This document shows positions 8,215 through 64,000 of a DNA stretch of 64,000 nt, piece by piece. How positions within the stretch are numbered: the first letter of the stretch is position 1; the number at the start of each line of letters is the position of its first letter. The position numbers were made by a program, and so were the translations under genes. Under the pieces are notes generated by a model, which was not told where the DNA came from, made no database searches, and worked only from the letters and a program-made list of their open reading frames with translations. The stretch covers positions 23,893 to 87,892 of IMG/VR virus record IMGVR_UViG_3300045303_000221. One strand, given 5' to 3'. This stretch comes from a virus.

Positions 8215-8269
8215 CTAGCGCACGGTGTGTGTTACAATTGAGGTGCGGGGACGACCCCCGCAGAGAGGA
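8215..8269 (+). promoter_or_regulatory. conserved promoter + hairpin + RBS
   Basis: CTAGCGCACGGTGTGTGT-TACAAT...TGCGGGG-ACGAC-CCCCGCA-GAGAGG. Confidence 0.8.
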
Positions 8270-8275
8270 ACGCGG

Positions 8276-10663
8276 ATGAGCACAACGATCGCATCGCTGG
8301 AAGTGGCCGTTCAGACGCTCGCCGCGCGTGACACTGACCGCGCTTACGAGCGCAACGGCGTCGGCTACAACAAGGCCGACTCGTGGATCGGGCACGCGCT
8401 GGCCGAGATCCCTGCGGACACCTGGGGCGACGAAACGACGTACGCAGCGTGGGCGATGCTGCGGAAGTACCGCGGCCAGCTTGCGGGGGCCGGGATCGAC
8501 TTCGACGCGATCCCCGTCCCGGCTGAGCCGGAGTACGGCGAGGATGCGGCGCGCGACACGGCGCGCACGGCGGCGTACCGCTGGCGGGTCGAGAAGCGCC
8601 GCGCTGAGCGCCGCGCCGCGAACGTGCCGACGATCGAGATGGACGCCGGAGGGTTCGGCGTCCGGTTCCCGTACGACGAGGAGCTTGTCGCCGCGATCCG
8701 CGAGGTGCCCGACCGCCGCTGGGATCGCGACCGCACGGTGTGGGTCGTCGCGCCGAAGGGCGCTGCGGCGCTGGCGGCGTGGGCTGAGCAGTACGGCGCG
8801 CAGATGTCGGCAGAGGTGGAGTCGGCTCTCGCCGGGCTGGCCGAGTGGGCGGCGGCGGAGGCCGCGAAGCCCGCGAAGCGGCTGGAGATGAGCGGCGACA
8901 CGATCCTCGTCTACTTCCCCTACGACTCCAGCATCGTCACGATCATGCGGAGCCTGAACGGCCGCTGGGACAAGGCGGCGTCGGTGTGGAAGGTGGCCGG
9001 GCGGCAGGCCGCGAAGCTGATCGACATGGCGCGCGAGCACGACTTCGACATCGCGCCGGAGATCCTGGCGGCGGTCGAGGCGCTGGAGACGCGCCGGGCC
9101 GCGAAGGTCGATGCCTCCCGCGCGCTGGACGCAGACCTGGACATCCCCGGCATCCGCGACGGGATGAAGCTGCACCCGTTCCAGCGGGCGGGCATCCGCT
9201 ACCTCCTGGAGCACGCAGACGGGCGCGGGATCATCGGCGACGAGATGGGCCTCGGGAAGACGCCGCAGACGATGTGCACGGTGGAGCACGCCGACGCCTT
9301 CCCGTGCCTGGTGGTGGTGCCGAACCTCGTGAAGCTGAACTGGCTGCGCGAGATTGACCTGTGGCTGCCGGGCCGCTCGATCACCCTGCTCGACTCCAGC
9401 AAGACGGCCGAGGTGAAGACGGTGAGCTTCCGCCGCCATCTGCTCGCGGGCGGGGGTCGCCGGACGATCCGCACGAACGATCCGACGGCGGAGTTCATGG
9501 TCGTCAACTACGACATCCTGCACAAGCTCCTGCCGCGCTTCAGCGGCAAGTCGCTGGGCGCGGTGATCTTCGATGAGGCGCACTACCTGAAGAACCCGAA
9601 GGCGCTGCGCACGAAGGCCGCGAACGCCATCGCGTCGATCGCGAAGCTGCGCCTGATGGCGACCGGCACGGCGATCCTGAACCGGCCGATCGAGCTTCTG
9701 TCGCCGCTGGAGATTCTGGGCCGGGCCGGGGAGTTCGGTGGCCGGTCGAGCTACCAGCGCCGCTACTGCAACGCGCACGAGGACTCTCGCGGTCACTGGG
9801 ACGTGTCGGGTGCGAGCAACCTGCCGGAGTTGAACGAGCGGCTGCGCGAGGTCTGCTACGTGCGGCGCGATAAGCGCGACGTGCTGACCGAGCTTCCGCC
9901 GGTGCAGCGGCAGACGGTGCTGCTCCCGATCACGAACCGCAAGGAGTACGAGCGGGCCGAGGACGACGTGGTGCAGTGGGCACGCGACAAGGCCCGGACC
10001 GACCGCGCGTTCCACGCAACGCTGGGCGGCCTGACGGCGGCGGAGCGGACGGAGGCGATCCGGGCACACGCGGCGGAGGCTGGCACTCGCGCGATGGCGG
10101 CGGAGGCGCTGCGCCGGATGGGCGCGCTGCGCAAGCTGACCGGCGAGGGTAAGGTCGCTGCGGTGAAGGACTGGGTGACGGAGTTCCTGACCGAGGAAGA
10201 CAAGCTGATCCTGTTCACCTGGCACGTGGAGGGTGTGCAGGAGGCCCTGATCGACACCTTCCCCGGCTGCGCCCGGGTGCTGGCGTCGGACTCCAAGGAG
10301 CGCCGCGACGCGGAGGTGGAGCGGTTCCAGACCGACCCGGACTGCAAGCTGATCGTCATCAGCCTGAACGTCGGCGGGGTCGGCCTCACGATCACCGCCG
10401 CGCATCACCTGGCGTTCGTGGAGCTTCCCTGGCGGCCTGGTGATGTTGACCAGGCCGAGGGGCGCGCGTACGGTCGCCTGAACGATGCGCACGGCCTCAC
10501 GAGCTACTTCCTGCTCGGCGAGGACACCTTCGATCTGGACATGGCTGACTTGCTGGACGAGAAGCGGATGGTGACCGACGCGGTGAACAGCGGCGCGGAC
10601 GGCGCGAGCGGCGACTCGATCATGGCGAGCCTGGTCGCGAAGATGGCGGAGCGGGCGGCGTGA
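8276..10663 (+). CDS. SNF2-family ATPase with two HARP-like repeats (SMARCAL1-like)
   Basis: GDEMGLGKT, DEAH, TGTAILNRP, GGVGLTI, QAEGRAY; two FPYD...RWD....W repeats before the ATPase. Confidence 0.9.
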   Translation: MSTTIASLEVAVQTLAARDTDRAYERNGVGYNKADSWIGHALAEIPADTWGDETTYAAWAMLRKYRGQLAGAGIDFDAIPVPAEPEYGEDAARDTARTAAYRWRVEKRRAERRAANVPTIEMDAGGFGVRFPYDEELVAAIREVPDRRWDRDRTVWVVAPKGAAALAAWAEQYGAQMSAEVESALAGLAEWAAAEAAKPAKRLEMSGDTILVYFPYDSSIVTIMRSLNGRWDKAASVWKVAGRQAAKLIDMAREHDFDIAPEILAAVEALETRRAAKVDASRALDADLDIPGIRDGMKLHPFQRAGIRYLLEHADGRGIIGDEMGLGKTPQTMCTVEHADAFPCLVVVPNLVKLNWLREIDLWLPGRSITLLDSSKTAEVKTVSFRRHLLAGGGRRTIRTNDPTAEFMVVNYDILHKLLPRFSGKSLGAVIFDEAHYLKNPKALRTKAANAIASIAKLRLMATGTAILNRPIELLSPLEILGRAGEFGGRSSYQRRYCNAHEDSRGHWDVSGASNLPELNERLREVCYVRRDKRDVLTELPPVQRQTVLLPITNRKEYERAEDDVVQWARDKARTDRAFHATLGGLTAAERTEAIRAHAAEAGTRAMAAEALRRMGALRKLTGEGKVAAVKDWVTEFLTEEDKLILFTWHVEGVQEALIDTFPGCARVLASDSKERRDAEVERFQTDPDCKLIVISLNVGGVGLTITAAHHLAFVELPWRPGDVDQAEGRAYGRLNDAHGLTSYFLLGEDTFDLDMADLLDEKRMVTDAVNSGADGASGDSIMASLVAKMAERAA

Positions 10664-17606: not shown

Positions 17607-17792
17607 ATGGACTGCCCGAGGTGCGGCACGCCAATGGTGCGCGAGAAGGCTCACGACACCTGCCACTGGTGCGGCTACATCGAGCCGTGCTGCTCGGGCG
17701 AGTGCTCGCCGCCGGACTACCCCCCAACCGGCGTGCGCGCGGACCGTTCCCAACGATTCCAGGCCGCGCGTCCCTACTACCCGACAGGTTAG
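17607..17792 (+). CDS. small zinc-ribbon protein
   Basis: CPRCG...CHWCGY..PCC. Confidence 0.55.
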   Translation: MDCPRCGTPMVREKAHDTCHWCGYIEPCCSGECSPPDYPPTGVRADRSQRFQAARPYYPTG

Positions 17793-18205
17793 GCCGCTGC
17801 GGCGGCGACGCCAAGGCTGGCGACCCCGAGGATGCTCATCAGCGTGCCGCGCGGGATCGAGCGGTTGCCGTGCATCGGCACGACCACCTTCCGGCCGCCG
17901 CCGGGCGGCTCAAAGACGGCGTGCGATCCCTTCTGGCCGATGCGCTTGAACCCGGCCTTCACGAGCATCTTGTAGACCTGCTTGGGAGTCATCGCCGGGA
18001 GCCGCGAGCCGACGAAGCTGCGCGTCTCGATCGGGTGCCCTTGGCCGTCCATCGGGATGAACTCGCCGATGCGGTTGCGGCGGTGCAGAGCCTCGTCCCA
18101 CCGGACGGACGGAGGGCGGGCCTCCATGATCCTCGCGGCGCGCAGGGCGACCGCGAGGGACACGCCGCGCGACTCGTGGAGAGCCACCCGATCCCAGAAG
18201 TCCAT
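17789..18205 (-). CDS. hicA: HicA-family RNase domain with N-terminal HPR-type tag
   Basis: MTPKQVYKMLVKAGF..IGQKGSHAVF...VVVPMHGNRSIPRGTLMSIL; leader IMEA...WDEALHRRNRIGEF; leaderless TACGAT-N6-ATG. Confidence 0.85.
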   Translation of the reverse strand: MDFWDRVALHESRGVSLAVALRAARIMEARPPSVRWDEALHRRNRIGEFIPMDGQGHPIETRSFVGSRLPAMTPKQVYKMLVKAGFKRIGQKGSHAVFEPPGGGRKVVVPMHGNRSIPRGTLMSILGVASLGVAAAAA

Positions 18206-18248
18206 GCGTGGATCGTAGTACGACCGCTGCGACCTGTAGCATTCAGGC

Positions 18249-19844
18249 ATGGGATGGGAGGACTCCGAGGCGCGGCGGTGTGCCGTGGAGCGCCTTCTCG
18301 CGGAGGCGGACTTCAACCCGGGCCTGCACCCGCACGACCGGCGCGGCCGGTTCATGCGCACCTGGCACCGCCCGAAGATGCCCGACTACGCGCAGGGCGG
18401 GCACCCGTTCGCGTCGCGCTACAAGCCGCACATCGACGTGCTGCGCGCGCTGGACGACGCGACGATCAAGCAGCTTGCGACGGAGCACAACGCGGCGTAC
18501 CCCGAGGCGGCGGCGGAGATCGCGCAGGGCCACGGGATCGTGAAGGTGTCGATCAAGCCGGACAAGTACGGCAAGACGGCGGAGGTCGTGTTCGCGCCGC
18601 AGGTTGTGCTGGCGGACGGCGGCACGGCGTCGGCGGCCGAGCCGATGATCTTCCCGATCGCGCACGGCGGCGTGAACCGTCCGTTCCTGAAGCAGGTGAA
18701 GGGCCACTTCCGAGGGATGCAGGTGCCGGTGCACGTGGAGTCGGTGACCGGCTACTCGCGCGACACCGAGGTGATCCCTCCGACGATCCGCTCGCAGAGC
18801 CTGAGCCGTCAGGTCGCCACCGGGCAGGCCGACTCGCCGCAGCCGGTGATCCCGGGCCTCGACCCGCAGTCGCGCGCGGACGCGGTGCTGAAGCGCCTGG
18901 AGCCGCTGCGGACGATGCGGACGTACGGCGAGGGCTACGACCGGACGGTGGCGACGCACGCGAACGACGCGCAGCGGATGGCGCTGGCCGGGCGGGTGGA
19001 CGAGGCGGAGCACTGGGCGACGCACGCCGAGAAGGCGGCGGCGCACGTGCGGGAGCGAGCGGCGGAGCGTGCAGCGCGAGGCACGGAGGCGTGGTCGAGC
19101 ACGGCCTGGCAGCGCCAGCCGAGGATACGGGAGGGCGTCATGGAACTGGACCGGGACGAGGCGGTGGCCTACTACGGCCGCGCGATGGAGCGGCTGGCCG
19201 AGCACGGCTGGCGGCCTCAGCAGGCGCACACGATCGCGCTGGAGGCGGGACGCACGCGGTACGGCAGCGAGTTCAGCACGCTCGTCCTGAGCGAGGGCCT
19301 GTTCACGCGGCTCGGGCACGCCGTCGGCGGCGGCGCTACGCACTACGACAAGTCGAAGCACCCGCACGGCCGGGGCGGCAGGTTCGCGGAGACGCCGGAC
19401 GCGCCGAAGCCGGTGCGCCACGAGGCCCCGGAGCCGGAGGCGGCGCTGCCGTCCGAGCACGGCCTGGCGAACATGACGCCGAGGGCGAAGTCGCTGGTGA
19501 ACGCGGTCGCGCTCCACTACAAGGCGTTCGGCGGCTCCGACTCGGAGATGCGGTTCCGGTTTCAGTCCGGCAACCTGCATCCGCAGGATCTGCGGCGGAT
19601 GCGGGAGCAGGCGATGCGCGCTCGCGATGAGCGCAGCAAGTCGGGCGACGCGGCGGGTGAGAAGGCGGCGCGCGACACGCTCAGCGCGATCAGAGTGGTG
19701 GAGCGCGAGCTTGGTCTGAGCGCCCAGACAGCGCAGCAGGAGAAGCCTGTCTCGTCCGAGGAACTGCTACGGCGGGTGCGCAACCGGCCGGTGGAGCGGT
19801 CGATCGTTGACCCGTACGGGCACTACTCGTATCAGACGGGCTAG
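18249..19844 (+). CDS. putative head cargo protein with two HPR tags
   Basis: LAEADFNPGLHPHDRRGRF and YDKSKHPHGRGGRF; leaderless TAGCAT-N7-ATG. Confidence 0.75.
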   Translation: MGWEDSEARRCAVERLLAEADFNPGLHPHDRRGRFMRTWHRPKMPDYAQGGHPFASRYKPHIDVLRALDDATIKQLATEHNAAYPEAAAEIAQGHGIVKVSIKPDKYGKTAEVVFAPQVVLADGGTASAAEPMIFPIAHGGVNRPFLKQVKGHFRGMQVPVHVESVTGYSRDTEVIPPTIRSQSLSRQVATGQADSPQPVIPGLDPQSRADAVLKRLEPLRTMRTYGEGYDRTVATHANDAQRMALAGRVDEAEHWATHAEKAAAHVRERAAERAARGTEAWSSTAWQRQPRIREGVMELDRDEAVAYYGRAMERLAEHGWRPQQAHTIALEAGRTRYGSEFSTLVLSEGLFTRLGHAVGGGATHYDKSKHPHGRGGRFAETPDAPKPVRHEAPEPEAALPSEHGLANMTPRAKSLVNAVALHYKAFGGSDSEMRFRFQSGNLHPQDLRRMREQAMRARDERSKSGDAAGEKAARDTLSAIRVVERELGLSAQTAQQEKPVSSEELLRRVRNRPVERSIVDPYGHYSYQTG

Positions 19845-26199: not shown

Positions 26200-26424
26200 G
26201 TGGCGGACACGCCGATCAAGGTGCGCGAGCCTCGGCTCGGAAGGCGGTCGCCACGGATCGGCGACTTCTACACGAACGGCCGGGAGTTGTACGAGGTGCT
26301 GATCGTGGCGGACGGCCGGGCGGCGATGGAGAACTGCCGGACGGAGTTCACCACCGAGTACGACCTGGAGACGGTGCGCCGGATGCGGCTCGTGCGCGTG
26401 GGAGGTACTGATGGGCTGGCTTGA
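26200..26424 (+). CDS. hypothetical protein, first gene of the portal operon
   Basis: Leaderless TATGCT-N7-GTG. Confidence 0.55.
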   Translation: MADTPIKVREPRLGRRSPRIGDFYTNGRELYEVLIVADGRAAMENCRTEFTTEYDLETVRRMRLVRVGGTDGLA

Positions 26425-28303
26425 GGGCGTGTCGAAGCGGCTACAGGAGGCGGCTGGGGTGTCGCTGGTCGCGCCGGAGGAACGGGCGGTGGAGGAGCGC
26501 CTGTTGGAGGCGACGACGCGCGAGTTGAGCGCCACCCGGAAGGACCTCGACCTGCTCGGCTGGACGGCGCTGGACTACGTGGCCGGGATGCCGCAGGACA
26601 TGCCGGTGCAGAACCGGCGCGAGCTTGTCGCGCACGCCCGGCGGGTGTGGCGGCGCGACCCGATGGCGGGCGCGGCCGTTGACCTGCTGAACGACTTCAC
26701 GTTCTCGCGCGGCGTCCCGCTGCCGCGCGCTCGGGACGAGGAAGTGCAGATCGTGATCGATGAGGCGTGGAACGACGTGGACAACAAGGCGGTGCTGACG
26801 ACGTACGCGGCGCAGCTAGCGCTCGGCACCGACCTGACGCTCCAGTCCAACGTGTTCCTGGCCGTGTTCGATGACGGCGACGACGGCAAGGTGAAGCTGA
26901 CGATCGTGCCGCACGACTCGGTGATCGACGTGGTGCGCGACCCGGACAACCCGATGCGGATCCTCTACTACGTCGTGCAGGTGAACGACACGGAGTGGGA
27001 CTTCGACGCGGACGCGCCGAAGGTGAAGGCGGCGGCGGGCGCGGCGGCGGGCACCGGCGGCACGTACAAGGCGGGGCAAGCGCCGGTCGGCCGGGTGCTG
27101 TATTTCGAGCACTGGCTGAACTGCCGGATGCTGCGAGAGGAAGGGATCGACTTCCCCGAGCCGCCAGCGGAGAAGCAGGCGGCGGGCAAGATGTACCACA
27201 TCGCCACGAATCGCGGCTCGGAGATGGCGTTCGGCGTGCCGCGGATGGAGCGGACGCTGCGCTGGCTGACGGGCTACAACGAGATCGTCGCGGCGCGCGT
27301 GGACATGGCGAAGGCGGCGGCGGCCTTCATCATGAAGCGCAAGATCACCGGCACGAAGGGGCAGGTCGAGCGGCTGGCGTCGCAGGCCATCTCGCGCCGG
27401 TCGGAGCTTGGCGCGGCGAGCGCGGCGGGCACCGGCTCGCAGATTCCTCCGGCGACCGGTTCGATCCTGAACGAGAACGAGTCGGTGCAGCACGAGCCGT
27501 TGAAGCTGGACTCCGGGTCGAGCGGGGCGATGCAGGACGCGCAGATGATCCGCGCGCAGGTGTCGGCCGCGACGCGCTGGCCGCAGCACTACCTGGGCGA
27601 CGTGAACGCTGCGAGCCTGGCCGGATCGACGGCGATCGAGCTTCCCGTGCTGAAGCTCGTGGAGGCCAACCAGGAACTGTTTGAGAACCTGTTCCGGGCG
27701 TTCCTCGACCGCGTGATCGAGCGGGCGGTGGAGGTCGGGAGGCTCGACAAGAACGCGCCCGCGCCGGAGGGTGAGGCGCTGGAGGCGGCGGACAACGACG
27801 ACGAGGAATCGACCGAGCGCGACCTGAGCTACGAGTTCAAGATGCCGTCCGCGATGCGGCGGATGATGACCGACCTGGTGACTTCGGTCGCGACGACGGC
27901 GCAGACGTTCGACCCGAACAACTCCAACCTGGAACTGAGCCGGACGCTGCTCACGATCGTGCTGGGCGAGGCGTTTGAGCTACAGGACCCGGCGGAGGCG
28001 GTCGATCGCATCTTCCCCGAGGGCTATGTCGATCCGGCGGTGCAGGCGGCGCAGGCGCAGGCGGAGATCCCCGGCACCGAGGGGTTCGATCAGGCCAGCG
28101 AGGAAGGCGCTCCGACCGGCGGCGACGGGCAGGACCAGGCGACCAACCCGTACGGCGCTCCGATGAAGTCGCCGCCGCCGGAGCAGCGGGCGCGGATGGC
28201 GGAGGCCGCCGACGGCATCGAGGAGGCGCTGTTGGACGACCCGGCGTTCCGCGAGGCGTGGATCGCGGCGGTCGGCATCGGACGCAATGGCGACGGACAC
28301 TGA
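26411..28303 (+). CDS. portal protein
   Basis: 630 aa; DPMAGAAVDLLNDFTFSRG, RDPDNP, RGSEMAFGVP, PQHYLGD...ASLA.STAIELP; directly before MuF. Confidence 0.8.
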   Translation: MGWLEGVSKRLQEAAGVSLVAPEERAVEERLLEATTRELSATRKDLDLLGWTALDYVAGMPQDMPVQNRRELVAHARRVWRRDPMAGAAVDLLNDFTFSRGVPLPRARDEEVQIVIDEAWNDVDNKAVLTTYAAQLALGTDLTLQSNVFLAVFDDGDDGKVKLTIVPHDSVIDVVRDPDNPMRILYYVVQVNDTEWDFDADAPKVKAAAGAAAGTGGTYKAGQAPVGRVLYFEHWLNCRMLREEGIDFPEPPAEKQAAGKMYHIATNRGSEMAFGVPRMERTLRWLTGYNEIVAARVDMAKAAAAFIMKRKITGTKGQVERLASQAISRRSELGAASAAGTGSQIPPATGSILNENESVQHEPLKLDSGSSGAMQDAQMIRAQVSAATRWPQHYLGDVNAASLAGSTAIELPVLKLVEANQELFENLFRAFLDRVIERAVEVGRLDKNAPAPEGEALEAADNDDEESTERDLSYEFKMPSAMRRMMTDLVTSVATTAQTFDPNNSNLELSRTLLTIVLGEAFELQDPAEAVDRIFPEGYVDPAVQAAQAQAEIPGTEGFDQASEEGAPTGGDGQDQATNPYGAPMKSPPPEQRARMAEAADGIEEALLDDPAFREAWIAAVGIGRNGDGH

Positions 28304-32445: not shown

Positions 32446-32521
32446 GCGCGGCTGGGCAAATGGTAAAGCCACCCGGTTCAACCCTCGGGAGACAGTCTGG
32501 GTTCGACTCCCAGGCCGCGCA
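32446..32521 (+). tRNA. atypical tRNA (Leu-CAA-like or pseudo-tRNA)
   Basis: Acceptor GCGCGGC/GCCGCGC; D arm GGC-AAATGGTAAA-GCC; anticodon arm CCCGG-TTCAACCC-TCGGG; T arm CTGGG-TTCGACT-CCCAG; discriminator A then CCT. Confidence 0.8.
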
Positions 32522-32522
32522 C

Positions 32523-32961: not shown

Positions 32962-33150
32962 AGTACGACGATACCAACGGTCAAGTCGCGAGTGACCAAC
33001 AGGGGGCTGAAAGATCCTTCGGGAGCACGGACCACTCCCGCCCCCGATCAACCGCGAAGGTCAGGTGTCGCTGGTTCTGACAGGCAGACGCTCCCCCCGA
33101 CCTCACCGTGTGGGGAGCGCCGCTGGGTTCGACTCCCGGCAGCGACGTAA
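32962..33150 (+). ncRNA. structured RNA ending in a tRNA-like domain
   Basis: GCGA- and UUCG-capped hairpins; 33067-33146 cloverleaf GTCGCTG/CAGCGAC with T arm CTGGG-TTCGACT-CCCGG. Confidence 0.7.
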
Positions 33151-34578: not shown

Positions 34579-36762
34579 ATGGACCTGACAGCGCAGATCG
34601 AGGCGGCTGCGCAGACCGCCGACCCCAACGAGCGCCGGGCGAAGCTCCGCATCCTGCGAGAGGAAGCGGAGGCGCAACTGGGGACGATCGACACCCACCT
34701 CGCCGACGTGGACTACGAGCGCGAGGCCGCCGTCCACGAGTTCACCGCCAAGGAAGCCGCCGCGCGCCACAACGCCACCCTGCGCGAGGAACTGATCCGA
34801 CGCGGCATCTCCGACGAAGCGAGCATGGACGACGCCGGACTGCTCTCCCACGCCGACCTCGACGCGCTCTCCGAGGAGGGCCTGCTGGAGCACGCACTGG
34901 ACGTGCTGTTCCCCGTCACCGAGGGGGCGGGCGGGAAGGTGTTCGGCACCATGATCCACTTCCAGGAGAAGCTGCACCCGCGCGGCCGAGGCGGCAAGTT
35001 CGCGAAGAAGCCCGGCGGTGGCGGCCCCGAGCCGAAGGCCGCGAAGCGCGCCCCGAACGTGCCCGGCAACGGCGGCGGCAAGACCAAGGCGCAGTCGCGC
35101 GCCACACCGGCACCGGCCGCCAGCGCATCACACGCACGACGCGAGGCGGAAGCCGCCCGCGCGAAAGAGTTCAAGCCGGTCGTGCCGGAGGACGTGCCGC
35201 AGCGCCCGAAGGGCCAGAGCGAGGAGAACAAGGCGAAGGTCGCGAACCTCGCAGCACGCATCGGCAAGCGCATCGCCGGAGCCGCCGCAGGCCGCCAGTC
35301 CTCACCGGAGAACACGATCTTCAACGCGAAGGGCAGCGTCTCACAGCACACGCTGCTCCAGTACGTCCGCGACGCCGCCAGCGAGCCGGACACGATGCAG
35401 CTTCACTCGCGCATGGGCCAAGACGGCCGACCCGTGTTCACCGCGGAACGCAAGGCCCTGCACGAGGCGATCATCGACATGGCGCTGCGCGCACCACGCT
35501 TCCGCCCAGACCCGCAGAAGCCCGACAAGAAGCTCCTGGAGTTCGACCCGAACGGCGCATTCCTGGAACCCGACCCCGACGGCCAGCCCAAGACGCTATT
35601 CAGCGGCGGCGGCTACGCAGCGGGCAAGGGCGCAAGCCTCGCCCGACTCGGAGACGACGAGAAGCCACGCAACGCGATCCTGCTCGACCCCGACCGGATC
35701 AAGGCGCTCCTCCCCGAGTTCCACGACGGCCTGGACAGCGACGACCCCGAAGCGAACCTGCACGTCTACCGCGAAGCGTGGGAGATCGCGCAGGAAGTGC
35801 AGCGCCGCGCCCAGGCGAAGAAGCTGAACATGGTCGTGGACGGCATCTCGGACACGACGGTGGAGGAAATCGACTCGCGCGTGCAGAGCTTCCTCGACCA
35901 CGGCTACAAGGTGCACATGGTCTACACCGACATCCCCACGGAGGAAGCGATCAGCCGCGCAGCGGGACGCGCAGCCGGGGCGAAGGCCGACAGCGACCGA
36001 CGCCACATCCCCGACACGATCATGCGCGCAGTGCACCGCGACGTGGCCGCGACGATCCCAGCCCTCATGGAGCACATGCAGTCGAAGCCGGAAGGCACCG
36101 CAAGGCCACGCATCGAGGTGTACGACAACCACCAGGGACAAGCCGACGACGGATCGTTCAACCCGCCGAAGCGAATGGCGCTATTCGACCCGGAGACGGG
36201 CCAGTTCAACGTGGAGGACGACGCGCTGTGGCAGCGCCTGCAAGCGAAGGGCGACGAGAAGATCCCCGGCCTCGACGCGCCGGAACGACCCGCGCAACCC
36301 GCGCCGGTCAGCGAAGCGGCGGAACCGCCGCAGGAAGGAGCGCCCGCCGTGCAGCCGGACGCACCCACACCGACACCCGCAGACGAGCCGCCCGCACCGA
36401 CGCCCGGCCCGAAGACGACGGACGAGATCGTGCAGGCCGGACTGCGCGTGGACGTGCCGTACGAACTGCCCGCCAGCCAGCCACTGAAGTACGAGGAAGG
36501 CGAACCGGCAGCGGAGACGCCGCCGGTGAACGCGAGCGAGATGGCCGACCGCGCGAGCGACGCGCTGGAGCGCAGCGGCATGACGAACGACCCGGACAGC
36601 AGCGCCGCGACCGGCCTGTTCCAGTACGACGCGCACGACGAGGCGGATGCCGTGAATCAAGCTCCGAAGGATGATTCACAGCCGGAAGCGAAAACGCCTG
36701 CAAATCCGGCACCGGTGAATACACCGAAGCCACCTTCGCCCACCGGCGGGACGCAGGGCTAG
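34579..36762 (+). CDS. zeta-toxin-like P-loop kinase with HPR tag
   Basis: FSGGGYAAGKG, LDPDRIK, MVVDG, AISRA..RA, RHIP, EVYDN; FQEKLHPRGRGGKF; leaderless TAGACT-N7-ATG. Confidence 0.8.
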   Translation: MDLTAQIEAAAQTADPNERRAKLRILREEAEAQLGTIDTHLADVDYEREAAVHEFTAKEAAARHNATLREELIRRGISDEASMDDAGLLSHADLDALSEEGLLEHALDVLFPVTEGAGGKVFGTMIHFQEKLHPRGRGGKFAKKPGGGGPEPKAAKRAPNVPGNGGGKTKAQSRATPAPAASASHARREAEAARAKEFKPVVPEDVPQRPKGQSEENKAKVANLAARIGKRIAGAAAGRQSSPENTIFNAKGSVSQHTLLQYVRDAASEPDTMQLHSRMGQDGRPVFTAERKALHEAIIDMALRAPRFRPDPQKPDKKLLEFDPNGAFLEPDPDGQPKTLFSGGGYAAGKGASLARLGDDEKPRNAILLDPDRIKALLPEFHDGLDSDDPEANLHVYREAWEIAQEVQRRAQAKKLNMVVDGISDTTVEEIDSRVQSFLDHGYKVHMVYTDIPTEEAISRAAGRAAGAKADSDRRHIPDTIMRAVHRDVAATIPALMEHMQSKPEGTARPRIEVYDNHQGQADDGSFNPPKRMALFDPETGQFNVEDDALWQRLQAKGDEKIPGLDAPERPAQPAPVSEAAEPPQEGAPAVQPDAPTPTPADEPPAPTPGPKTTDEIVQAGLRVDVPYELPASQPLKYEEGEPAAETPPVNASEMADRASDALERSGMTNDPDSSAATGLFQYDAHDEADAVNQAPKDDSQPEAKTPANPAPVNTPKPPSPTGGTQG

Positions 36763-38426: not shown

Positions 38427-41400
38427 GTGGAGCCGCACGACGATCTGTCTGAGGCCGCTGGCGGAACGCCGCCACCGAAGCGTCGCGGTGGGCAGGGCGC
38501 GAACCAGGAGTTTGAGGGCGCGCACCCGCGATCGGCGAAGGGCCGGGTGGGCGGCGGCGAGTTCGCGAAGAAGCCCGGGCAGGGCGGCGCGGCGAAGCCG
38601 AAGATGCAGGCGGTGTCGGTCGCGTCGGCGCTGAAGGCGGCCGGGGTGAAGTCGATCGCCGAGTTCCAGAAGACGCGCGGGCTGCCGGTGACGGGCAGGC
38701 TCGACTCGCGGACGATGGTGGCGCTGCGCAACGCCTACGTCGCGCACCTCGTGGACTTGCAGTCCGGCGGTGGGACGGCGGCCGGGACGAACGCGGCGGC
38801 GAAGGCCGGGGTGACGCTCGGGCTGCACGACTACGCGAAGCGCGGGATGGGCACGAAGGCAGACCCGGACTCGCGCGTGAGCCGGGTGCAGCAGACCCTG
38901 GAGCGGCTGGGCTACGACGTGCCGATCGACGGCGTGTATAGCTCCGAGCTTGAGACGGCCGTGAAGCAGTTCCAGGCCGACCACGGACTGCCCGCCACGG
39001 GCGTCGTGAGCGTGCAGACGCTGCGGCAGATGGACAAGCTCCACTCGCAGCGCGACGCCGGGAAGGAGCCGGGCGGCGGCCTGTCGGCGGACACGCCGGG
39101 CACGAAGCACCGGGTCGGCACGGACGAGGTGAAGTCGCTCGCGAACCGGGCACGCGCCGGGCGGATCGCGCGCACCGGCCGGGTGGCGGCGACGGTGAAG
39201 ACGACCACCCCGAAGGCGAAGGCGAAGCCGACCGGCACGAAGCCGCGCAAGCCGCCTGCGACGACGGCCGTGAAGATCACCCAGGCAGCGGTCGATGAGC
39301 CGGACGAGGCGCGCTTCGACGCGCTCGTGATCGACGGCGAGGAGGTCGAGCCGACGGACGTGACGACGCTCCCCTGGTGGGACGAGGACGAGACGTTCGC
39401 GCAGGAGGCGGCGATCGACTGGCGCGAGGTGCTGCACCCCCGGAACCGGCTCGGGAAGTTCCGGCGCGTGTTCGGCGACCCGCGCCCACAGACGCACACG
39501 CAGCGGCTGGTGGCGGAGCCGCCGGTGCAGACGCGGCGCACGGCCGGGAAGCTCGGGGCGCGTCGCACACGGCGCGAGACGCCGGTGCCGGACCAGTGGG
39601 GCCAGAAGCTGATCGAGCACGCCGAGTGGAGCGACAAGGACAACAAGTGGCTCCAGGAGGGCGGGGTGCTGGCGACGGTCACGCACCTGGCGACGGCGCA
39701 CCGCTGGCCGAGCATCGCGCCGTTCCAGGGGTTCGACGCGAAGTCGCTGCGCAACTCGGAGGGCGAGCTTCGGATCAGGCCGCCGCAGGAGGTGAACGGG
39801 CAGCGCATTTTCGAGCAGTGGTGGATCACGGCCGCGATCAGCGCGGCGAAGAAGGGCGTCACCGAGATGGTGATCGCGCACGAGGTGGGGCACATGCTGG
39901 ACGCATCGCTGATGCGCCCCGAGGACGGCCAGCCCGATCCGCGCAACAAGAGGATGGACTACCACTTCCACGGCAGCGAGGCAGCGGCGAACATGTCGAT
40001 CGAGACGATCGAGCGGCAGGGCTTCGCGATGTCGGCGGAGCAGCACGCGAGGTGGCGCGAGTTCCTGAAGATCGCCGTCACGCCGTCGGTGCTGGGGCAG
40101 ACGAAGTACGCGGCGAAGTACCACCGGTCGCCCGCCGAGTTGTGGGCGCGGGCGTATGCGCAGTGGGCGGCGTCCACGCAGGGGCCGCCGCTGGGGATCG
40201 AGCGGGCCGCGATTCCGGGCATGACGTGGCCTGCGGACGAGTGGGAGCCGGTCGGCCGGGCGGTGGAGTCGGTGCTTGGCAGCTACGGGCTGCTGCACAC
40301 GGACGGCGCGTTCAAGTGGGAGGTGCAGCCGGGCGGGATCGAGCCGCAGATCATGCCGGACGCGGCGCAGAAGACGATGAACGCTGTGCACAAGTTCATC
40401 GGCGACCAGCGGATGCACGGCGCGGCGCAGGCGCTGCAGGGCTTCGACTTCAAGTACGTCGATACGGTGGGCGGCGAGCACGAGTACGAGCGCGAGGTGG
40501 GTGGCGGTCTGCTCACCGGGTTCGTCAAGCCGAACGACCCGTCGATCCGGTGGGAGTTTGAGGCGGACGTGCAGGCGACGCCGCCGTATCAGCGGAGTCG
40601 GCGGGCACCGAAGCCGATGCCGGAGTACGTGCGGCAGGAGGGCCTGAACGCGGAGGCGGAGATGGAGTCGCGCGGGGTGCCGCCGATGGGCGTCCTGCTC
40701 GACCGCGGCTTCCGCTCCGAGGACTCGCCGTCGAAGGCGCACGCGGTGTACGCGAAGACGTTCCCCGAGGGGAAGCTGCGCGCCCGGTTCAAGCACGGCG
40801 AGCACAAGGTCGAGTGGAAGTGGGAGGGCGACCTGCCGGACATCACGTCGGAGGTGAGCGCGCCGCTGCCGGTGCCGCCGAAGCCGGAGTGGGTCCGACC
40901 GGATGATCCGGAGGGCGAGTCCTCGGACGAGTTCCTGGTGCGGATGGCCCGCGAGCGCGAGCGGACGATGACGTGGGAGCAGGAGGTGAAGCGGGGCCTC
41001 TCTGTTGGCCGGTGGACGGAGGCGGAGGCGAAGGAGGCTGGCTACCACACCCAGAGCCGCGGGGAGGGATGGGAGCCGCTGCCGGACGGGCCGCTGTTCC
41101 ACGTGACGACGGCCGCGAGCGCGGTGCGGGCTGGTGGGCTGAAGACACGGTACGAGCTTGCGCAGGGTTCGGGCGCAGGGCTGGGCGGCGGCGCGGAGGA
41201 CACGATCTCGTTCACCACGGACGAGACGATCGCGCGCGCCATCGCGCTGGGCCTGCGGGAGATGCGGATGGTCGCGCGCGGGGAGGTGTCGGCCGCCGAC
41301 CTGTTGCGGCACGCGGAGAACGGCACCGCGGCTGATAGGCCGTTCGCGACCGACCTGATCCGGTACTACGACTACGCGAACCGGGCGTGGTCGCCGGGAG

Positions 41401-44400
41401 ACGAGTTGCCGTCGGAGTTGCGGCTGTTGCTGGACGGCAAGCGACGGGTCGGTCACACGCACATGCCATCGACGCGAGAGGAGGCGGCGGCTGAGGCGGG
41501 GATCGCGCCGGAGCTTCTGACGCACTCAGATCAGTCGATGCCGTTCGGACGGGGGGCGCGGAACGACTGGGTGGGGCCGATGACGGACGCGCAGTTGCGC
41601 GAGAAGACGGTGGACTTTTACCGGGCGTTCCAGACGTTCCGCGAAGGCGCGGGCGGGCCGTTCAACCCGCTGTTCTTCTCGTCCGACACGGAGGCGCTGG
41701 CGAACGTGCATCCGTCGGAGATCCGCATCCTGCGGTTCCGGCGGAAGGCGAACGGGCACGGCTACCGGACGGCGGGGATGGAGGAGATCCGCACCGGCAG
41801 CGGCGAGGCGGTGCAGTTGGAGGACGTGCTGCGCGAGGACGCCTTCGACCTGTCGGAGGCGACGCACGAGTGGACGACGCTGCGGACGGACAAGGTGCGG
41901 GTCGGCGCTACCGAGGTGATCGGCCCGGACGTGACGACGCTCTCGTGGTGGCGCGAGGAAGCTGTGCAGGAGGCGTCCTGGCGCTCGGTGCTGCACCCTC
42001 GCGACCGGCGCGGCCGGTGGCGACACACGCTCGGGAAGCCGAAGGCGCGGAGCACGATCACGATCGACCCGGGCACGTTTATGCCGCCGTCGGGGCCGCT
42101 GGCGAATGGTCGGCCGCGCACGAGGGCGAAGACGCCGGTGCTGGACGAGACGCAGCGGATGATCCGCGACGCGCCGTTCCTCGATACCGACGTGGGCGAC
42201 GAGGTGCCGACGGAGTTCAACGTGGTGATGGCGCAGGCCGTCGTCGCGGAGGCACACCGGTGGCCGGAGTTGCCGCCGCTGACGTTCGTGCTGGGCGACC
42301 TGGAGCCGGGCGTGAAGGGAGAGTTGAGCATCACGCCGCCGGTGCCGCCGTTCCAGGAGGAAGCGTGGGAGTTGGCGCTGGACGAGAAGCTGATGGGCGT
42401 GGAGGGCGCGACGACGTTCGCGCACGAGATGGGCCACGCGGTGGACGCTGCGATGGCGCGCGACGTGGGGTATGTCGAGGGCAACAACGTGCGCGGCGCG
42501 GTCGGGAACTTCGGCTACTTCGCGTCGGGCATGGCGGCGGCCGACAACCCGTACGGCGAGGTGCTGCTCGGGCCGGAACGGTTCGCGGCGTGGCGGCACT
42601 TCCTGAAGATGGCCGTCACGCAGTCGATCGTGGACGAGATGTCGTCGCCGCCGGACTACTACCGCTCCCCGCACGAGTTGTGGGCGCGCGCCTACGCGCA
42701 GTGGGTGGCGACGCAGGACGAGGCGCTGATGGGCGAGATGCACGACGTGCACGAGCACGGCTGGCCGCAGGACGAGTGGGAACCGGTCGGACGGGCCGTG
42801 GAGCGGGTGCTGGGCGCGCACGGGCTGCTCTACGAGGGGGACGAGGCGTGGGTGGCGGAGGTCGGCCCGGAGCCTGAGAGGCGGCCTCTACGGCAGCCTC
42901 CGCGGTCGCAGATCGAGACGCCGCTCCCGCCCGTCATCCGCCAGAAGGCGGTCGCGGTGATGCACGACCTGACGCACATCGACCACAACCAGACGGGCGT
43001 GACGACGGACGACGTGATGCGGACGCACGGCTTCGCGGAGCCGGAGGGAGAGGCGCTGGCCGATGCGTTCCGGGAGGGCCTGGTCGGCGTCGGCTACAAG
43101 CTGTACGTGAGGGAGTTCCCGGTGGGCCGGGCGTGGTTCCGGGTGCGGACGGGCGAGCAGCCGCCGACGGAGCCGAACTTCTCGTGGATCGGCGAGGCGC
43201 TGCCCGACCCGCTGACGTTCGTGGTCGAGGCCCCGGATGACGAGGACGACCTGGAGTGGTTCCCGCTGGCGACGCCGGACGAGGTGATCGTGGACGGCGA
43301 GGTGATCGAGGGGCCGGACGTGACGACGTTGCCGTGGTGGGACGACGACGACGTGGTGGAAGCGGTGGACTGGCGGCCCGGCCAGCATCCTCGCGATCGG
43401 CGCGGTAGGTGGCGCGACGTGCTGGAAATGCCGAAGTCGAACGTGCTCGACAGGATCTCGGTGAAGTCAAGGGCGGAGCCGGACAAGCCGCTGACGACGA
43501 AGCTCGCGGGCCACGAGGTTCCGGTCGTGGTCGGCGAGATCGACATGTCGTACGCCACGACGACGCGCGTGGTTGCGGCGTTCGCGGCGGTCAAGGATCA
43601 TCGGTTCCCGGTGGGGTTCCTGACGATCGACCGGGACAAGCACCGGGTCGAGTTGATCTACGTGGAGACGGACAACCGGCGGCAGGGGATTGCGACGGCG
43701 CTGTACCGGGCGGGCCTGGCGCTGTACCCAGACCTGATCTTCGACGCCGACCGGACGGATGAGGGGGAGGCGTTCACGACGGCGACGGGCGGGAAGCGGG
43801 AGCGGCGCAGGAAGTTCGCGACGGCGGAGGCGCGGCGTATCGGTAGCCGGTTCCTGGGGGCGATGTACGGGGCGACGGCGGAGGACATCAAGCCGATCGA
43901 GCCGCCGCAGTCGGAGGGGCCGATCAGGGTCGCCTCGCGCTCGGGCTACCCGCCGGGCGGCGAGTGGCGGCGGGCGGTCGGCCTGGGGGAGGACGCCTAC
44001 CTGGTGGGTGGCGCTCCCCGGAACCGGATCTTCGGGGAGCCGGTGAAGGACGAGGACTTCATGGCCCTGCAGACGCCGGAGGCGATCAAGGCGGCGGCGC
44101 TGGCGGCTGGGCACACGGTGGAAGACCTGATGGTGCGCGACCGGCTGGTGGGCGTGCGCGTCACCGGGTCGAAGCTGCCGTCGGGCGGGATCGAGATTGC
44201 GCCGCCGAGGGTGGAGCGCTCGACCGGCGCGGGCCGCCACGACTTTGAGATCGTGCCGCACCCGGGGATCGGGTCGGAGACGCCGGAGGTGCTGCTCGCG
44301 GCGGACGCTGCGCGGCGCGACTTCACGTTCAACGCGCTGTACGAGGACGCGGCCGGGAACATCGTGGACCCGACCGGCACGGGCCTCGCGGATGCGCAGG

Positions 44401-47400
44401 CGAAGGCGCTGCGCACGGTGTCGCCGGACAGCTTCAAGGAAGACCCGCTGCGCATCCTGCGCGGCCTGCGGTTCATGTCGCAGTACGACGTGAAGCCGGT
44501 GCCGGACACGACCACGCAGATGCGGCTGCACGCATCGTCGGTGAACGCGCTGACGAAGAAGGGCGTGAGCGGCACGGCGCGCACCGAGTTGGACAAGATC
44601 CTGATGGGGCCGCACGTGGGCGCGGCGCTGCGGCAGATGCGCGACACGGGCGTGCTGGAGCACTTCCTGCCCGAGGTCGCTCCGGCGGTCGGCTTCAACC
44701 AGGAGTCGAAGTACCACGGCCTGACGCTGGACGAGCACATCATCTCGGCGGTCGAGGCGGCGGCTGCGCAGGGCGCGTCGCTGCGGGTGCGCCTCGCGCT
44801 CCTGTTCCACGACTCGGGGAAGCCGGAGTCGGCGTGGCGGGGCGAGGACGGCCACCTGCACTACTACGCGAACCCGAAGCTCGGGAAGGACGCGCACGAG
44901 GACGTGGGCGCGGCCATCGCGCGGCGGGCGCTGACCCGACTCGGCTACCCGGCGAAGGTGACGCAGGACGTGGAGCGGCTGGTGGCGGCGCACATGCTGA
45001 TGCCGACCGACCGGCTGTCGAAGATCAGGCGACTGCGGGCCGAGCACGGCGAGCTTCTGGACGACCTGTTCGCGCACCGCCGGGCGGACATGTCGGCGAA
45101 GGGCGAGGATCACGGCGCTGAGGGGCACGATGCGCTGGAGCGGATGCACGAGGAAGTGCGGCTGAGCCGGACGCGGGGCGAGGCGGTGCGGCGCGGCGAC
45201 CTGGCCGTGACGGGCGCGGACATCGTGGCGCTCGGGGTGAAGGGGCCTGCGGTCGGCGAGGTGCTGGCCGTGCTGCTCGACTTCGTGATCGGCGACCCGT
45301 CCCTGAACCGGCGCGACTGGCTGCTCGCACGGGCTGAGAAGCTGGCGCGGCGGCACCTGAGCGAGGCGGTGCGGGTGACGCCGGTGATGGAGGCGTGGTG
45401 GCGGTCGTTGCTGCATCCGCGGGATCGTCGGGGCCGGTTCATGGACAAGCTGGGACGCCCGACTCAAGCTGTGAGTCGCGAGCGGAACGAGTACCCGCCG
45501 TCGGTGGAGTATTTCGGGCCGTTCTACGACTCGCCGTACCCGATGCAGCGGACGCGCGACGAGGAGCCGGACCTGTCACCGCAGGCCACGAAGCTGATGG
45601 ACGACATCAGCGGCGCGCTGATCCGGCCGGGCAGCAGCGACCTGGAGCGGCAGACGGCGCGGCAGACGCGGGCGTCGGCGTACGCGGTGCTGACCGCGAA
45701 CCGGTGGCCGCGCATCCCGAAGACGAGCATCGCTGTGAAGCGCGACATGGCAGAGGGCACGCACGGGCACTTCGCGACGACCGGCTCAGGGACGGACGTT
45801 GAGCGGTGGGAGATCGCGATGAGCGAGGCGTCCGTGCTCACCGGGAAGTCCGTCACCACGATCGTGCACGAGATGGGGCACGCGCTGGACGCGGCGATGG
45901 CCTACCCGGTCGGCGACGACCGGCTGGCGCTGCGGGTCTACGGCGAGGTGAAAAAGAGCCACCTGGCGTCCGGGATCGCGGCCTCGGAAAACGAGGCGGG
46001 GCACGAGATGCTGGGCCTGGAGCGAGTGGCGGCGTGGCGGCGGTTCTTCAAGGCGTCGATCACGCAGTCGGTGCTGGACGCCGACGTGCGGCCGGGCTAT
46101 CACCGTGCGCCGCACGAGTTGTGGGCGAGGGCGTACACGCAGTGGGTGGCGAGCACCGATCCGTTGCTGGCGGAGCACTTGCGGCGGCTGAACTGGAATC
46201 AGGGCTGGCCGCCGCAGGAGTGGGAGCGCGTCGGGTTGGCGGTCGAGGACGTGCTGCGTGCGCACGGCCTGCTGTACGAGCACGACTCGCCGAACGCGCG
46301 GTATGCGTGGTCGGTGGTGGACCCGGAGACGGGCGAGCCGACGGAGCCGACGATCCCAGACCTGCCGCCGCTGATGCCGCCGCGCGGGATGGCGGAGCCG
46401 CTGAAGTACGCGCTCCCGAAGGAGGCGCTGGACGACGAGGTGCGCATCCGCGACGACCTGTCGAACGTCACGGAGGCGTCCGAGCACCCGATCGATGACG
46501 CGATGCGCAAGCAAGGGTTCTCGTACGCGGGCGACGACACGGAGTTCGTGACCTGGGCGAAGGAATACCCGGAGGGGCGGGCGCTGATCCGCTACCCGGT
46601 GGGCACGAAGCCGAAGACGTTCTGGGCGTTGGGGAAGTCTGCGTGGATCGGCAGCCCGAGGCCGGACCCGCTGACGCACGTCGTGGAGATGCGGGCGACG
46701 GAGCGGCTGTGGGGCGGTGTCGGTCGGCGGATGCGGCAGCACGGCGGCTACGCGGAGCGGCTGCACCCGAGGGATCGCCGCGGCCGGTGGCGGGACACGC
46801 CTGGGCAGATCACGGTGCGGTCGGAGGACTGGCGGGCGCAGCATCGGCCGCCGAGCAAGGACGACGACGTGGGCGGGCCGCTGCACGACCTGACGCAGGT
46901 GATGCCCGCCGACGTGTATACGCACCCGCACTACTACTTCACGACGGGAGGCGATCCGGACTCGGAAGCGGCGTACCGGGAGTCGTGGGCGGCGATCCAA
47001 CGGGTGCGCGGGAAGCCGGACGCGAAGGTGCGGATCTACCGGTCGCTCCCGGCCGAGCACGCGCACAACGGCTTCCACGAGGGCGACTGGGTGACGCTCT
47101 CCAAGACGTACGCGCGGCGGCACGGGATGGGGATGGGCGATCCGCACGCGGACGACTCCGAGAACGACTGGCCGGTGATCAGCACGACCGTGCTGGCGCG
47201 CGATCTTCTGACGCACGCGGACGACCTGAACGAGTGGGGCTACGTCGGGCCGGGCCGGAACACGGCGATGGTGGCGTTCAAGGGCGGCCGGAAGCAGGAG
47301 GTGCGCCAGCACGCGGATGGCGTCGTGCGTCCGGTGAAGCGGCGCGGCGAGGGGACGATCAAGGTGCAGTCGGCCGGGTCGATCGCGAAGTGGCGCGATG

Positions 47401-62522: not shown

Positions 62523-62918
62523 ATGCCGTACAGCCGACCCGGCCGGATGTTCTACACGGTCGCGACCAAGGCAGTCAACCACGGTGCGCCAGTCATCGAG
62601 CAGGGCGTCCCGGGCGTTGCTGTCAAGCAGCGCCGGGCAGGCTCTGGCGCAGGCTCGGGCACCCCGCAGTACCAGATCGCGATCACCGAACCGTTCGCGA
62701 TCATCACGAAGGGGCAGGTGCAGGTGGTCAACACCGGCTCCGGCCTCTCGGCGGCAGCGCCGGGCACGCCGATCTACATCATCGCGGCGTCGAACCTGCT
62801 CACGACCACGGCCGCGGGCAACGTCAAGTTCGGGATGCTGGTCGAGAACGCAACCGTTCGCGGCACCCCGGCGGGCTACTGCCGGATCGACCTGGACAAG
62901 CGGGACCTGTTCGTCTAG
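62523..62918 (+). CDS. head decoration/cement protein
   Basis: Small Gly/Ala/Val beta-rich protein between protease and MCP; GVAVK, GTPIYI, KFGML. Confidence 0.65.
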   Translation: MPYSRPGRMFYTVATKAVNHGAPVIEQGVPGVAVKQRRAGSGAGSGTPQYQIAITEPFAIITKGQVQVVNTGSGLSAAAPGTPIYIIAASNLLTTTAAGNVKFGMLVENATVRGTPAGYCRIDLDKRDLFV

Positions 62919-62960
62919 GCCGCCTGGGCAACTACGAGGGACACGGGAGAGACACAGAAA

Positions 62961-64000
62961 ATGCGACCTTACGGCGAGTACGGCCGCCCGATCGCGATCT
63001 TCGAGGCGTATCGCGAGTGGTCGGACATGCGGCTCCAGGAGGCCGACAGCCGCGCGGACTTCCCCGAGTTCCTGTTCGGGCCGGTCCGGACGGCCCTGTG
63101 GCACGCCTACGCGCGTGTCAACCCCCAGTGGCGGCGGTACACCTCCGTCGTCCCGCTGACCGACTTCCGCGAGCGGCGGCTGCGCGGGATCAACGGCCTC
63201 CGCGGGTTCGGGTACGTGGGCGACCACGGCGAGTACCCGGGGATGCGCCGCACCGAGCGGCTGCCCGCTGTGATCGCGCTGGACACCTACGGCGGCGTCT
63301 ACTCGATCACCCGGCAGTTGATCCTGTCGGACGACACCGGCGAACTGCTGAACCGCAACCCGGGCGACATGGGCTGGGAAGCGGGCCGGTTCGTCGGCGA
63401 GGCGATCGTCTCGCTCATCGAGTCCAACCCGACGGCCGCCGACGGCACGGCGTTCTTCCACTCGTCTCGCGGCAACACCGGCGTCGCGCCCCTCTCCGAG
63501 GACGCGCTCGCGGATGCGATCTCCTGGATGGAGGCGCAGCTTGACGACGACGGCAACCACATCATGATCCGCGCCAACGCGCTGCTCGTGAAGACGGCGC
63601 GGCTCCAGATGATCGCGAACCGCGTGCTCCGCTCCCAGGAGACGGGCACGAGCGTCACGATCGCGTCGGCGGCGGGTGCCGGGTCGAACATCTTCGACAA
63701 GGGCACGATCAACTCGCTGGAGGGCATCCTTCCGGCGGACGCTGTGATCCGCGAGCCGTTCCTCACGGACGCCAACGACTGGTATCTGTTCGCCGATCCG
63801 GCGGACGTGCCAGCCTTCGCGGTCGGCTTCCTGAACGGGAACGAGCAGCCGTTCGTCGGCCTCAAGGACCCGACGGTGCGGAACGCGCTCGGGGCCGGGA
63901 TGGACCCCTACACGTACGAGTTCGACTCGATCGACTTCAAGGTCCGGCACGACTTCGGCCTCGCGGCCGTCGATCCGCGCGGGGCATTCCGGAGCGTCGC
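62961..64000 (+). CDS. major capsid protein (Mu gpT-like HK97 fold), runs off the window
   Basis: Missing from ORF track (no stop). Translated: MRPYGEY...LQEADSRADFPEFL...LTDFRE...TYGGVYSITRQLILSDD...GFLNG...KVRHDFGLAAVDPRG. Confidence 0.9.
   Translation, partial: MRPYGEYGRPIAIFEAYREWSDMRLQEADSRADFPEFLFGPVRTALWHAYARVNPQWRRYTSVVPLTDFRERRLRGINGLRGFGYVGDHGEYPGMRRTERLPAVIALDTYGGVYSITRQLILSDDTGELLNRNPGDMGWEAGRFVGEAIVSLIESNPTAADGTAFFHSSRGNTGVAPLSEDALADAISWMEAQLDDDGNHIMIRANALLVKTARLQMIANRVLRSQETGTSVTIASAAGAGSNIFDKGTINSLEGILPADAVIREPFLTDANDWYLFADPADVPAFAVGFLNGNEQPFVGLKDPTVRNALGAGMDPYTYEFDSIDFKVRHDFGLAAVDPRGAFRSV

Follow-up and report, generated by a model that had tools for sequence, protein, structure and literature searches.

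The stretch of DNA analysed here (the window) is 64,000 nucleotides long and forms the final 64 kb of the 87.9-kb linear IMG/VR record IMGVR_UViG_3300045303_000221 (positions 23,893-87,892). One giant open reading frame (ORF) of this phage, P0001, encodes a protein of 3,915 residues that contains a class II CCA-adding nucleotidyltransferase with an HD phosphohydrolase domain. The assignment of the enzyme to the class II CCA-type nucleotidyltransferases is strong and, judging from the residues that it conserves, the segment of residues 1846-2330 is very probably an active CCA-adding or repair enzyme. Considering all the evidence, the best explanation is that this active enzyme is head cargo that repairs the 3' ends of tRNAs, a reading to which we assign a probability of about one half.

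In the mechanism that we propose, phage polyvalent proteins would have acquired a class II CCA-adding enzyme of actinobacterial type with an HD phosphoesterase in the form of a mobile cassette. Made together with the head proteins, the giant protein would probably be loaded into the capsid, and may be cut, or at least organised, at disordered tags of the sequence HPRDRxGRW, with zincins or the prohead protease as the putative cutters. The protein or its fragments would then accompany the DNA into the next host cell. Once inside, the HD domain would clear away blocking phosphates, after which the freed module would rebuild the missing or damaged 3'-CCA both of host tRNAs and of the tRNA-like RNAs that the phage encodes without CCA, so that translation could be kept alive when host immunity or toxin-antitoxin effectors hit the tRNA acceptor end. 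If this is true, the CCA/HD cargo of an injected multi-enzyme protein would represent RNA repair delivered before gene expression begins. To our knowledge, the known counters to tRNA-targeting immunity are phage-expressed, namely spare tRNAs, RNA ligase/Pnkp and stand-alone CCA enzymes.

The enzyme module and its parts are located as follows.

43962..45416, + strand: whole CCA-adding/HD module with head, neck, HD body and tail (residues 1846-2330 of the ORF; AlphaFold2, Foldseek and alignments)
43995..44414, + strand: catalytic head (Pfam PolyA_pol, residues 1857-1996)
44049-44057, + strand: DxD of motif A (GGAPRN...D1875-E-D1877), inside the catalytic head
Inside 43995..44414, + strand: flexible loop (10 protein letters) and a motif of 10 protein letters, with family-invariant residues kept
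44580..44684, + strand: neck/RNA-binding segment (Pfam PolyA_pol_RNAbd, residues 2052-2086)
44730..45008, + strand: HD phosphohydrolase domain, H..H...HD.GKP...H...H...D (Pfam HD, with a weak TIGR00277 HDIG match)

The head (PF01743, PolyA_pol) was identified with an E value of 1.8e-13 and 51.4 bits against a cut-off of 23, the neck (PF12627, PolyA_pol_RNAbd) with 34.5 bits against 22 and the HD domain (PF01966) with 26.1 bits against 22, while the tail gives a weak Pfam match to tRNA_NucTran2_2. The AlphaFold2 model, built with 43 homologues, has a mean predicted local distance difference test score (pLDDT) of 89.5 and a predicted template-modelling score of 0.85. In the folded piece (P0002) the pLDDT is at least 86 from residue 21 to about residue 490, and the ends are disordered (the first 20 and last 25 residues; pLDDT below 50 at 509-533, which contains HPRDRRGRF). 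Its best full-length Foldseek matches are the CC-adding enzyme of A. aeolicus (3WFR, with HD) and the CCA enzyme of B. stearothermophilus (1MIV), with E values near 1e-15, followed by further full-length matches to the Planococcus, Thermotoga and human CCA enzymes. Stand-alone homologues of about 470 residues can also be aligned with the module over its whole length. An initial annotation of this DNA had proposed a complete CCA-adding enzyme with an intact HD domain at 43990-45355. The Pfam scores, the confident model and the full-length structural matches agree with that proposal, and its interval is contained in the folded module. The protein strings that it quoted all occur in the + strand translation of 43902-45500 (10 letters leading to a run of 50, LLFHDSGKP, and HEDVG with a string of 19).

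Conservation was analysed in alignments of 36-39 fused relatives and, separately, of 43 mostly stand-alone relatives. Motif A (GG..R and DxD), motif B (RRD) and motif D (EDxxR) are all present, in GGAPRN with the 12-letter string that follows it and in another string of 12 letters, and a motif of 13 letters sits immediately upstream of the neck segment. The invariant or near-invariant positions kept in the module include the DxD, the PR.E before the loop, the RRD, the D, P and R of EDPLRxxR, and the HD ligands H, H, HD.GK, H, H and D; the family-invariant HD residues are H279, H303, D304, K307, H332, H364 and D396. The flexible loop has 10 residues, from R to F, and matches the E. coli loop R65-F74, which is required for A addition and deleted in CC-adding enzymes (PMC2532741); in length it appears to fit the 10-12 residues of CCA-adding enzymes. 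Among the NCBIfam models, the top match is TIGR02692 (actinobacterial CCA enzyme), which is aligned end to end (profile positions 27-454 of 466). The CCA models outscore the pcnB poly(A) polymerase models about two-fold, and the module stays below the cut-offs of the bacterial poly(A) polymerase PcnB models (TIGR01942, 75 against 305.65 bits; NF008634, 40 against 702 bits).

Three features of the module weigh against this assignment. The TIGR02692 score of 140.5 bits lies below the equivalog cut-off of 438.8, as does that of NF008137 (multifunctional CCA addition/repair protein; 127.2 against 451 bits), and the module is therefore a divergent relative and not an equivalog. The near-invariant GGxVRD is GGAPRN here, with D replaced by N, which is the sole deviation. 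Both could point to an inactive relic retained as a spacer or RNA-binding domain. We consider this highly improbable, given that the metal-binding and template residues are all kept, here and across the fused family, and that the closest relative, P0008, has the same GGAPRN and is otherwise strongly conserved at 79% identity. The third feature is that poly(A) polymerases also have EDxxR and the loop, and motifs A-E are common to both kinds of class II enzyme, so that sequence alone separates them poorly (PMC2532741). Together with the weak pcnB matches and the occurrence of nucleotide phosphodiesterases among HD enzymes, this would allow for substrates other than tRNA: host RNAs could be marked for faster decay with poly(A) or CCACCA-like tails, or nucleotide alarm signals could be degraded by the HD domain. 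Such a role seems improbable in view of the two-fold advantage of the CCA models and the retention of the full tRNA-binding body and tail. The HD residues also match the pattern of CCA enzymes; the CCA enzymes of E. coli and M. tuberculosis have an HD domain, which poly(A) polymerase lacks (PMC10673834). The HD domain, the tail domain and the scores of the models thus favour a CCA-type tRNA enzyme.

The module lies in frame within a stop-free ORF, whose giant product of many modules is encoded in the region of the head genes; the initial annotation had called it a putative virion protein. The main features of this carrier, apart from the module itself, are the following.

38427..50174, + strand: giant ORF P0001, 3,915 codons, phage-type polyvalent protein by its domain content (zero stops in 11.7 kb; G+C content of third codon positions, GC3, 0.94)
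38871..39032, + strand: PG_binding_1 (PF01471), the better of two copies near the N terminus (residues 149-202, E = 4.4e-23)
39879..39902, + strand: active site of zincin peptidase 1, HEVGHMLD (HExxH scan)
Starting at 42423, 45867 and 48621, + strand: the other zincin HExxHxxD sites (HExxH scan)
43581..43724, + strand: core of a GNAT acetyltransferase, between a tag and the CCA module (Acetyltransf_10, E = 5e-5)

Pfam recognises PG_binding_1, LPD1 (41.7 bits against a cut-off of 27), PolyA_pol and PolyA_pol_RNAbd in P0001, and the GNAT domain is borderline (23.7 bits against 23.6, residues 1654-1850). Each of the four zincin sites is followed by an LPD1-type helix (a string of 16 protein letters). 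Phage-type polyvalent proteins have a zincin variant with an Asp three residues after HExxH, and up to five peptidase copies are interspersed among their other domains (PMC5512222). P0001 combines many unrelated domains, including four zincins, LPD1, two PG_binding_1, GNAT and CCA/HD, and it is encoded with virion and packaging genes; judged by this architecture, it is a phage-type polyvalent protein. Segments 620-1189 and 2780-3240 have no Pfam or PHROGs family match, and 'ART-like' modules, considered at one point, could not be confirmed with either database. The last module of the giant protein (49074-50171, + strand) has a sub-threshold match only, to DUF3626 (19 against 27 bits).

Seven copies of a short tag, [aromatic]-x3-L-HPRDRxG(R/K)(W/F), were identified in the giant protein, at residues 337, 1190, 1654, 2330, 2780, 3241 and 3550, and five more lie outside it.

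39435..39464, + strand: tag copy (motif scan)
43386..43415, + strand: tag of 10 protein letters opening the segment with GNAT and CCA, residue 1654 (motif scan)
45414..45443, + strand: tag HPRDRRGRF closing the CCA module, residue 2330, in a disordered stretch (motif scan, pLDDT)
Starting at 41994, 46764, 48147 and 49074, + strand: the remaining tags within the ORF (motif scan)
34975, 50195, 51180, 55126 and 56340, + strand: five tags near the N termini of separate proteins, upstream and downstream of the giant gene

One tag thus stands directly after the CCA module, and the preceding one stands before the GNAT domain. With the strict motif there are 12 copies in the whole record, compared with 0.1 expected from codon shuffles, all on the coding strand and within 34975-56340. 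The tag copies conserve the peptide while their DNA is just 62-75% alike, suggesting selection on the tag peptide and arguing against an assembly artefact. Among the tagged neighbours, a protein of 727 residues (34579-36762) has a Zeta-toxin kinase domain (Pfam E = 2.4e-20), and several others have no Pfam or PHROGs matches. The tag was not found described in the literature searched, including PMC5512222 and the MuF toxin paper, and a search of PDB sequences with the tag peptide gave a chance match only. A misassembly or chimera at the repeated tags was considered and rejected. The internal DNA repeats of the giant ORF are only 60-87% alike, which makes assembly chimeras at repeats unlikely, and a single Logan contig of 6,406 nucleotides, from a separate assembly of what is probably the source run, corresponds to 39002-45407 with zero differences and runs from the upstream modules into the CCA module.

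The position of the gene, the polyvalent architecture and the shared tag lead us to lean slightly towards delivery of the giant protein as virion cargo. The ORF is placed downstream of the portal gene and upstream of the protease/capsid genes.

26411-28303: portal protein
Approximately 60994-63998: head-maturation protease/major head protein

Packaged precedents are known in the polyvalent proteins, the DdrB protein of P1 and the virion RNA polymerase of N4 (PMC5512222); since the latter has 3,500 residues, proteins of giant size can be packaged. Alternatively, the enzyme could be active and never injected, as part of a late polyprotein that works where it is made and guards tRNA ends late in infection against capsid-sensing or abortive-infection effectors, the fusion serving co-expression only. 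The location of the gene in the late (head) block would suit this alternative, as would the fact that neither a MuF nor a portal fusion was detected in P0001 and the protein behind the portal. On the other hand, peptidoglycan-binding domains near the N terminus and a polyvalent architecture suit proteins of the entry phase, and the shared tag is restricted to proteins of the head region; we therefore regard a non-injected enzyme as unlikely. A more specific form of the cargo reading is that the capsids of soil-actinobacterial phages are pre-loaded with a tRNA 3'-end repair enzyme, which would be released at HPRDRxGRW borders and would protect translation before phage gene expression, the tag being a general address or cutting signal for head cargo. 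This stays speculative and is, in our estimate, rather improbable in its full form; its candidate targets would be MenT/AbiE-type nucleotidyltransferases, CapRel-type pyrophosphokinases and 3'-end nucleases.

The relatives of the module suggest that it moves between proteins. A word-indexed search of proteins of 2,153-6,852 residues recovered five further giants (2,227-3,526 residues) with the module at 51-58% identity. In one of them, P0006 (2,350 residues), the CCA module is at the N terminus and is accompanied by Tad3, a type I Thoeris inhibitor (residues 1530-1640, E = 4.7e-29); GNATs, LPD1 and PG_binding_1 occur in other giant relatives. When 1.84 billion cluster representatives were searched exhaustively with HMMER, 673 clusters were found at E < 1e-30, and the best 150 of the 673 were examined. 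The whole module is present in 141 of these 150, and 77 of the 141 are fusions, embedded or terminal, in proteins of up to 4,972 residues. HPR tags were identified in 22 proteins (21 of these representatives and the window's own protein), most of which have a tag within a few residues of the N-terminal border of the module and often a second tag after it. In P0008 the 79% identity is confined to residues 1833-2309 of the giant protein, and the other 1,055 residues of P0008 are without similarity to it; because a closely related module is surrounded by unrelated flanks, the module is best described as a shuffled cassette. As the cassette is widespread among the closest clusters and shuffled between unrelated giants, selection on tRNA acceptor ends appears to recur among uncultured actinobacterial hosts.

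In IMG/VR, most phage CCA genes are stand-alone, of about 450 residues and 27-34% identical, and few are fusions (L003, L005, L008, L009, L022 and L073). A tblastn search against phages and plasmids found stand-alone Cca genes only, at 24-31% identity. One IMG/VR fusion, a protein of 1,154 residues on a 122-kb viral contig (L005:9611-13072), has the order leader, HPR tag, CCA/HD, HPR tag, weak HD_4 and DUF7178 (E = 7e-16); its HD_4 domain, which is RelA/SpoT-hydrolase-like, is below the cut-off (20 against 27.2 bits). A 2H phosphoesterase read by eye in L003 was unconfirmed by Pfam and was dropped. Three other viral contigs with 46-51% G+C (L008, L009 and L022) represent a second, untagged class of about 950-1,260 residues with CCA/HD at the C terminus. 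In these, a conserved domain (...IPFIYDV...GHPG...VEGYY.PGG...) precedes CCA/HD, and the N-terminal regions are without a Pfam match.

A FastTree phylogeny was calculated for 301 modules, in which the cellular sequences are those among the matches listed. All fused modules are in one clade of 153 (support 0.99), and all tagged modules are in a sub-clade of 85 (support 1.0). Among the matches listed, this sub-clade holds two cellular sequences, one from a metagenome-assembled genome (MAG) of Gaiellaceae (48% identity) and one from a MAG of Actinomycetes (43%). Both are considered housekeeping Cca genes because they are the sole PolyA_pol-family genes of their MAGs. The Cca proteins of Streptomyces and Micromonospora are only 28-30% identical. 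A profile search of genome contigs with the single protein gave nothing, and one with the alignment recovered only cellular Cca genes among the matches listed. From the tree and the identities, the cassette seems to have been captured from an actinobacterial lineage that is under-sampled, an origin that we hold loosely.

The interval that separates the portal region from the giant gene contains two tRNA-like genes.

32446..32522, + strand: tRNA-like gene with an anticodon loop of 8 nucleotides (ARAGORN tRNA-??? (caac))
33067..33146, + strand: second tRNA-like element, with acceptor stem and T arm, a long irregular insert and no encoded CCA (Rfam)

The first has a normal T arm and an acceptor stem followed by A-CC-T, hence without a full encoded CCA, and gives a weak Rfam match to tRNA-Sec (22 bits, short of the gathering score). 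It might decode four bases or act as a decoy. The second matches mascRNA-menRNA in Rfam (27.5 bits against a gathering score of 42.5). The initial annotation had called both RNAs CCA-less, and indeed neither encodes a full CCA; from their sequences, both could possibly be substrates of the module. It is conceivable that the maturation of these RNAs is the main job of the enzyme, and their lack of an encoded CCA and their location beside the giant gene are in line with this. However, they are just two odd tRNA-like genes, both under the Rfam gathering score, and related cassettes are found in proteins of many kinds. In mycobacteria most tRNA genes are without CCA, and the enzyme of actinobacterial hosts already adds it (PMC11541572). 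Because these hosts need and have a CCA enzyme, maturation of the phage's own RNAs is the weaker reading, with little chance of being the main function. Only one cca gene was found in the record, whose completeness is about 74% according to CheckV.

Evidence from mycobacteria is consistent with a protective role for tRNA 3'-end repair. When PcnA is overexpressed, M. smegmatis withstands MenT3, a toxin that extends the 3' ends of tRNAs, and PcnA trims and rebuilds tRNA ends in vitro (PMC11541572). The HD domain of the M. tuberculosis CCA enzyme is a phosphatase, which the authors link to the removal of 2',3'-cyclic phosphates (PMC10673834). By analogy, the counter-defence that the initial annotation suggested is plausible for the phage module and could be its main role, although we put this at slightly less than an even chance. 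A CCA enzyme is already essential in actinobacterial hosts, and the benefit of an extra one is an assumption (PMC11541572). Among the partner domains of the fused relatives, those related to RNA repair are rare (LigT and HD_4, each in 1 of 36). The partners recognised by Pfam are GNAT, YunG, HicA, SprT-like, LigT, HD_4, PcfJ and an intein, and because they are so heterogeneous the context does not single out tRNA repair. Heterogeneous partner domains are typical of polyvalent proteins. As for delivery, no MuF domain (Phage_Mu_F) was detected by Pfam or PHROGs in P0001 or in the 1,054-residue protein behind the portal. Furthermore, the phage is uncultured.

Comparison with known systems indicates which part of this arrangement is new. 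The module shares the order of head, neck, HD body and tail, motifs A, B and D, the loop and the HD residues with class II CCA enzymes with HD (M. tuberculosis Rv3907c/PcnA and E. coli Cca; folds 1MIV and 3WFR). Cellular class II enzymes, however, are free-standing housekeeping genes of about 470 residues, whereas here the enzyme is an internal cassette of a phage protein of 3,915 residues with a tag at its downstream border. The polyvalent proteins described in 2017 by Iyer, Burroughs, Anand, de Souza and Aravind (PMC5512222) are the same kind of multi-domain giants, with interspersed HExxHxxD zincins, LPD1, GNAT and cell-wall-binding domains, and are encoded beside head genes. That survey never mentions CCA and has Pol-beta nucleotidyltransferase domains only in proteins of conjugative elements, while the present module sits in a phage protein. 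Stand-alone phage CCA enzymes, known from jumbo and tRNA-rich phages (PMC7824862), belong to the same family and are interpreted as RNA-repair genes that restore tRNA 3' ends, but they are separate genes of about 450 residues, mostly 24-31% identical, in contrast to the fusion into a presumed cargo protein seen here. MuF-fused effectors and the T4 internal proteins, including Alt, are alike in the general idea of head-module enzymes delivered with DNA; they differ in that no MuF was detected here in the two proteins searched. Polyvalent proteins, the enzyme family and CCA genes in phages have each been described before, their combination is absent from the 2017 survey, and no paper joining polyvalent proteins with CCA enzymes was found in the literature searched. 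The module also offers an assayable enzyme for testing the packaging, cutting and activity of those modules of polyvalent proteins that are delimited by tags.

The record has a G+C content of 70%, and its high-GC3 genes are almost all on the + strand. The whole stretch is present in one sequencing run only, a soil metagenome, possibly the source sample itself; other soil runs contain small shares of it, and there is no RNA run among the listed sequencing runs with this stretch. A blastn search of the region against 50,697 phage records returned zero matches. One of the few genes on the minus strand (17789-18361) specifies a protein in which about 120 extra N-terminal residues precede a HicA toxin domain (Pfam E = 3e-16). 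On the + strand, the gene at 8225-10663 encodes a protein of 812 residues that matches very large phage proteins in their helicase part (phrog_62, E = 8e-93, profile positions 648-1141 of 1,881).

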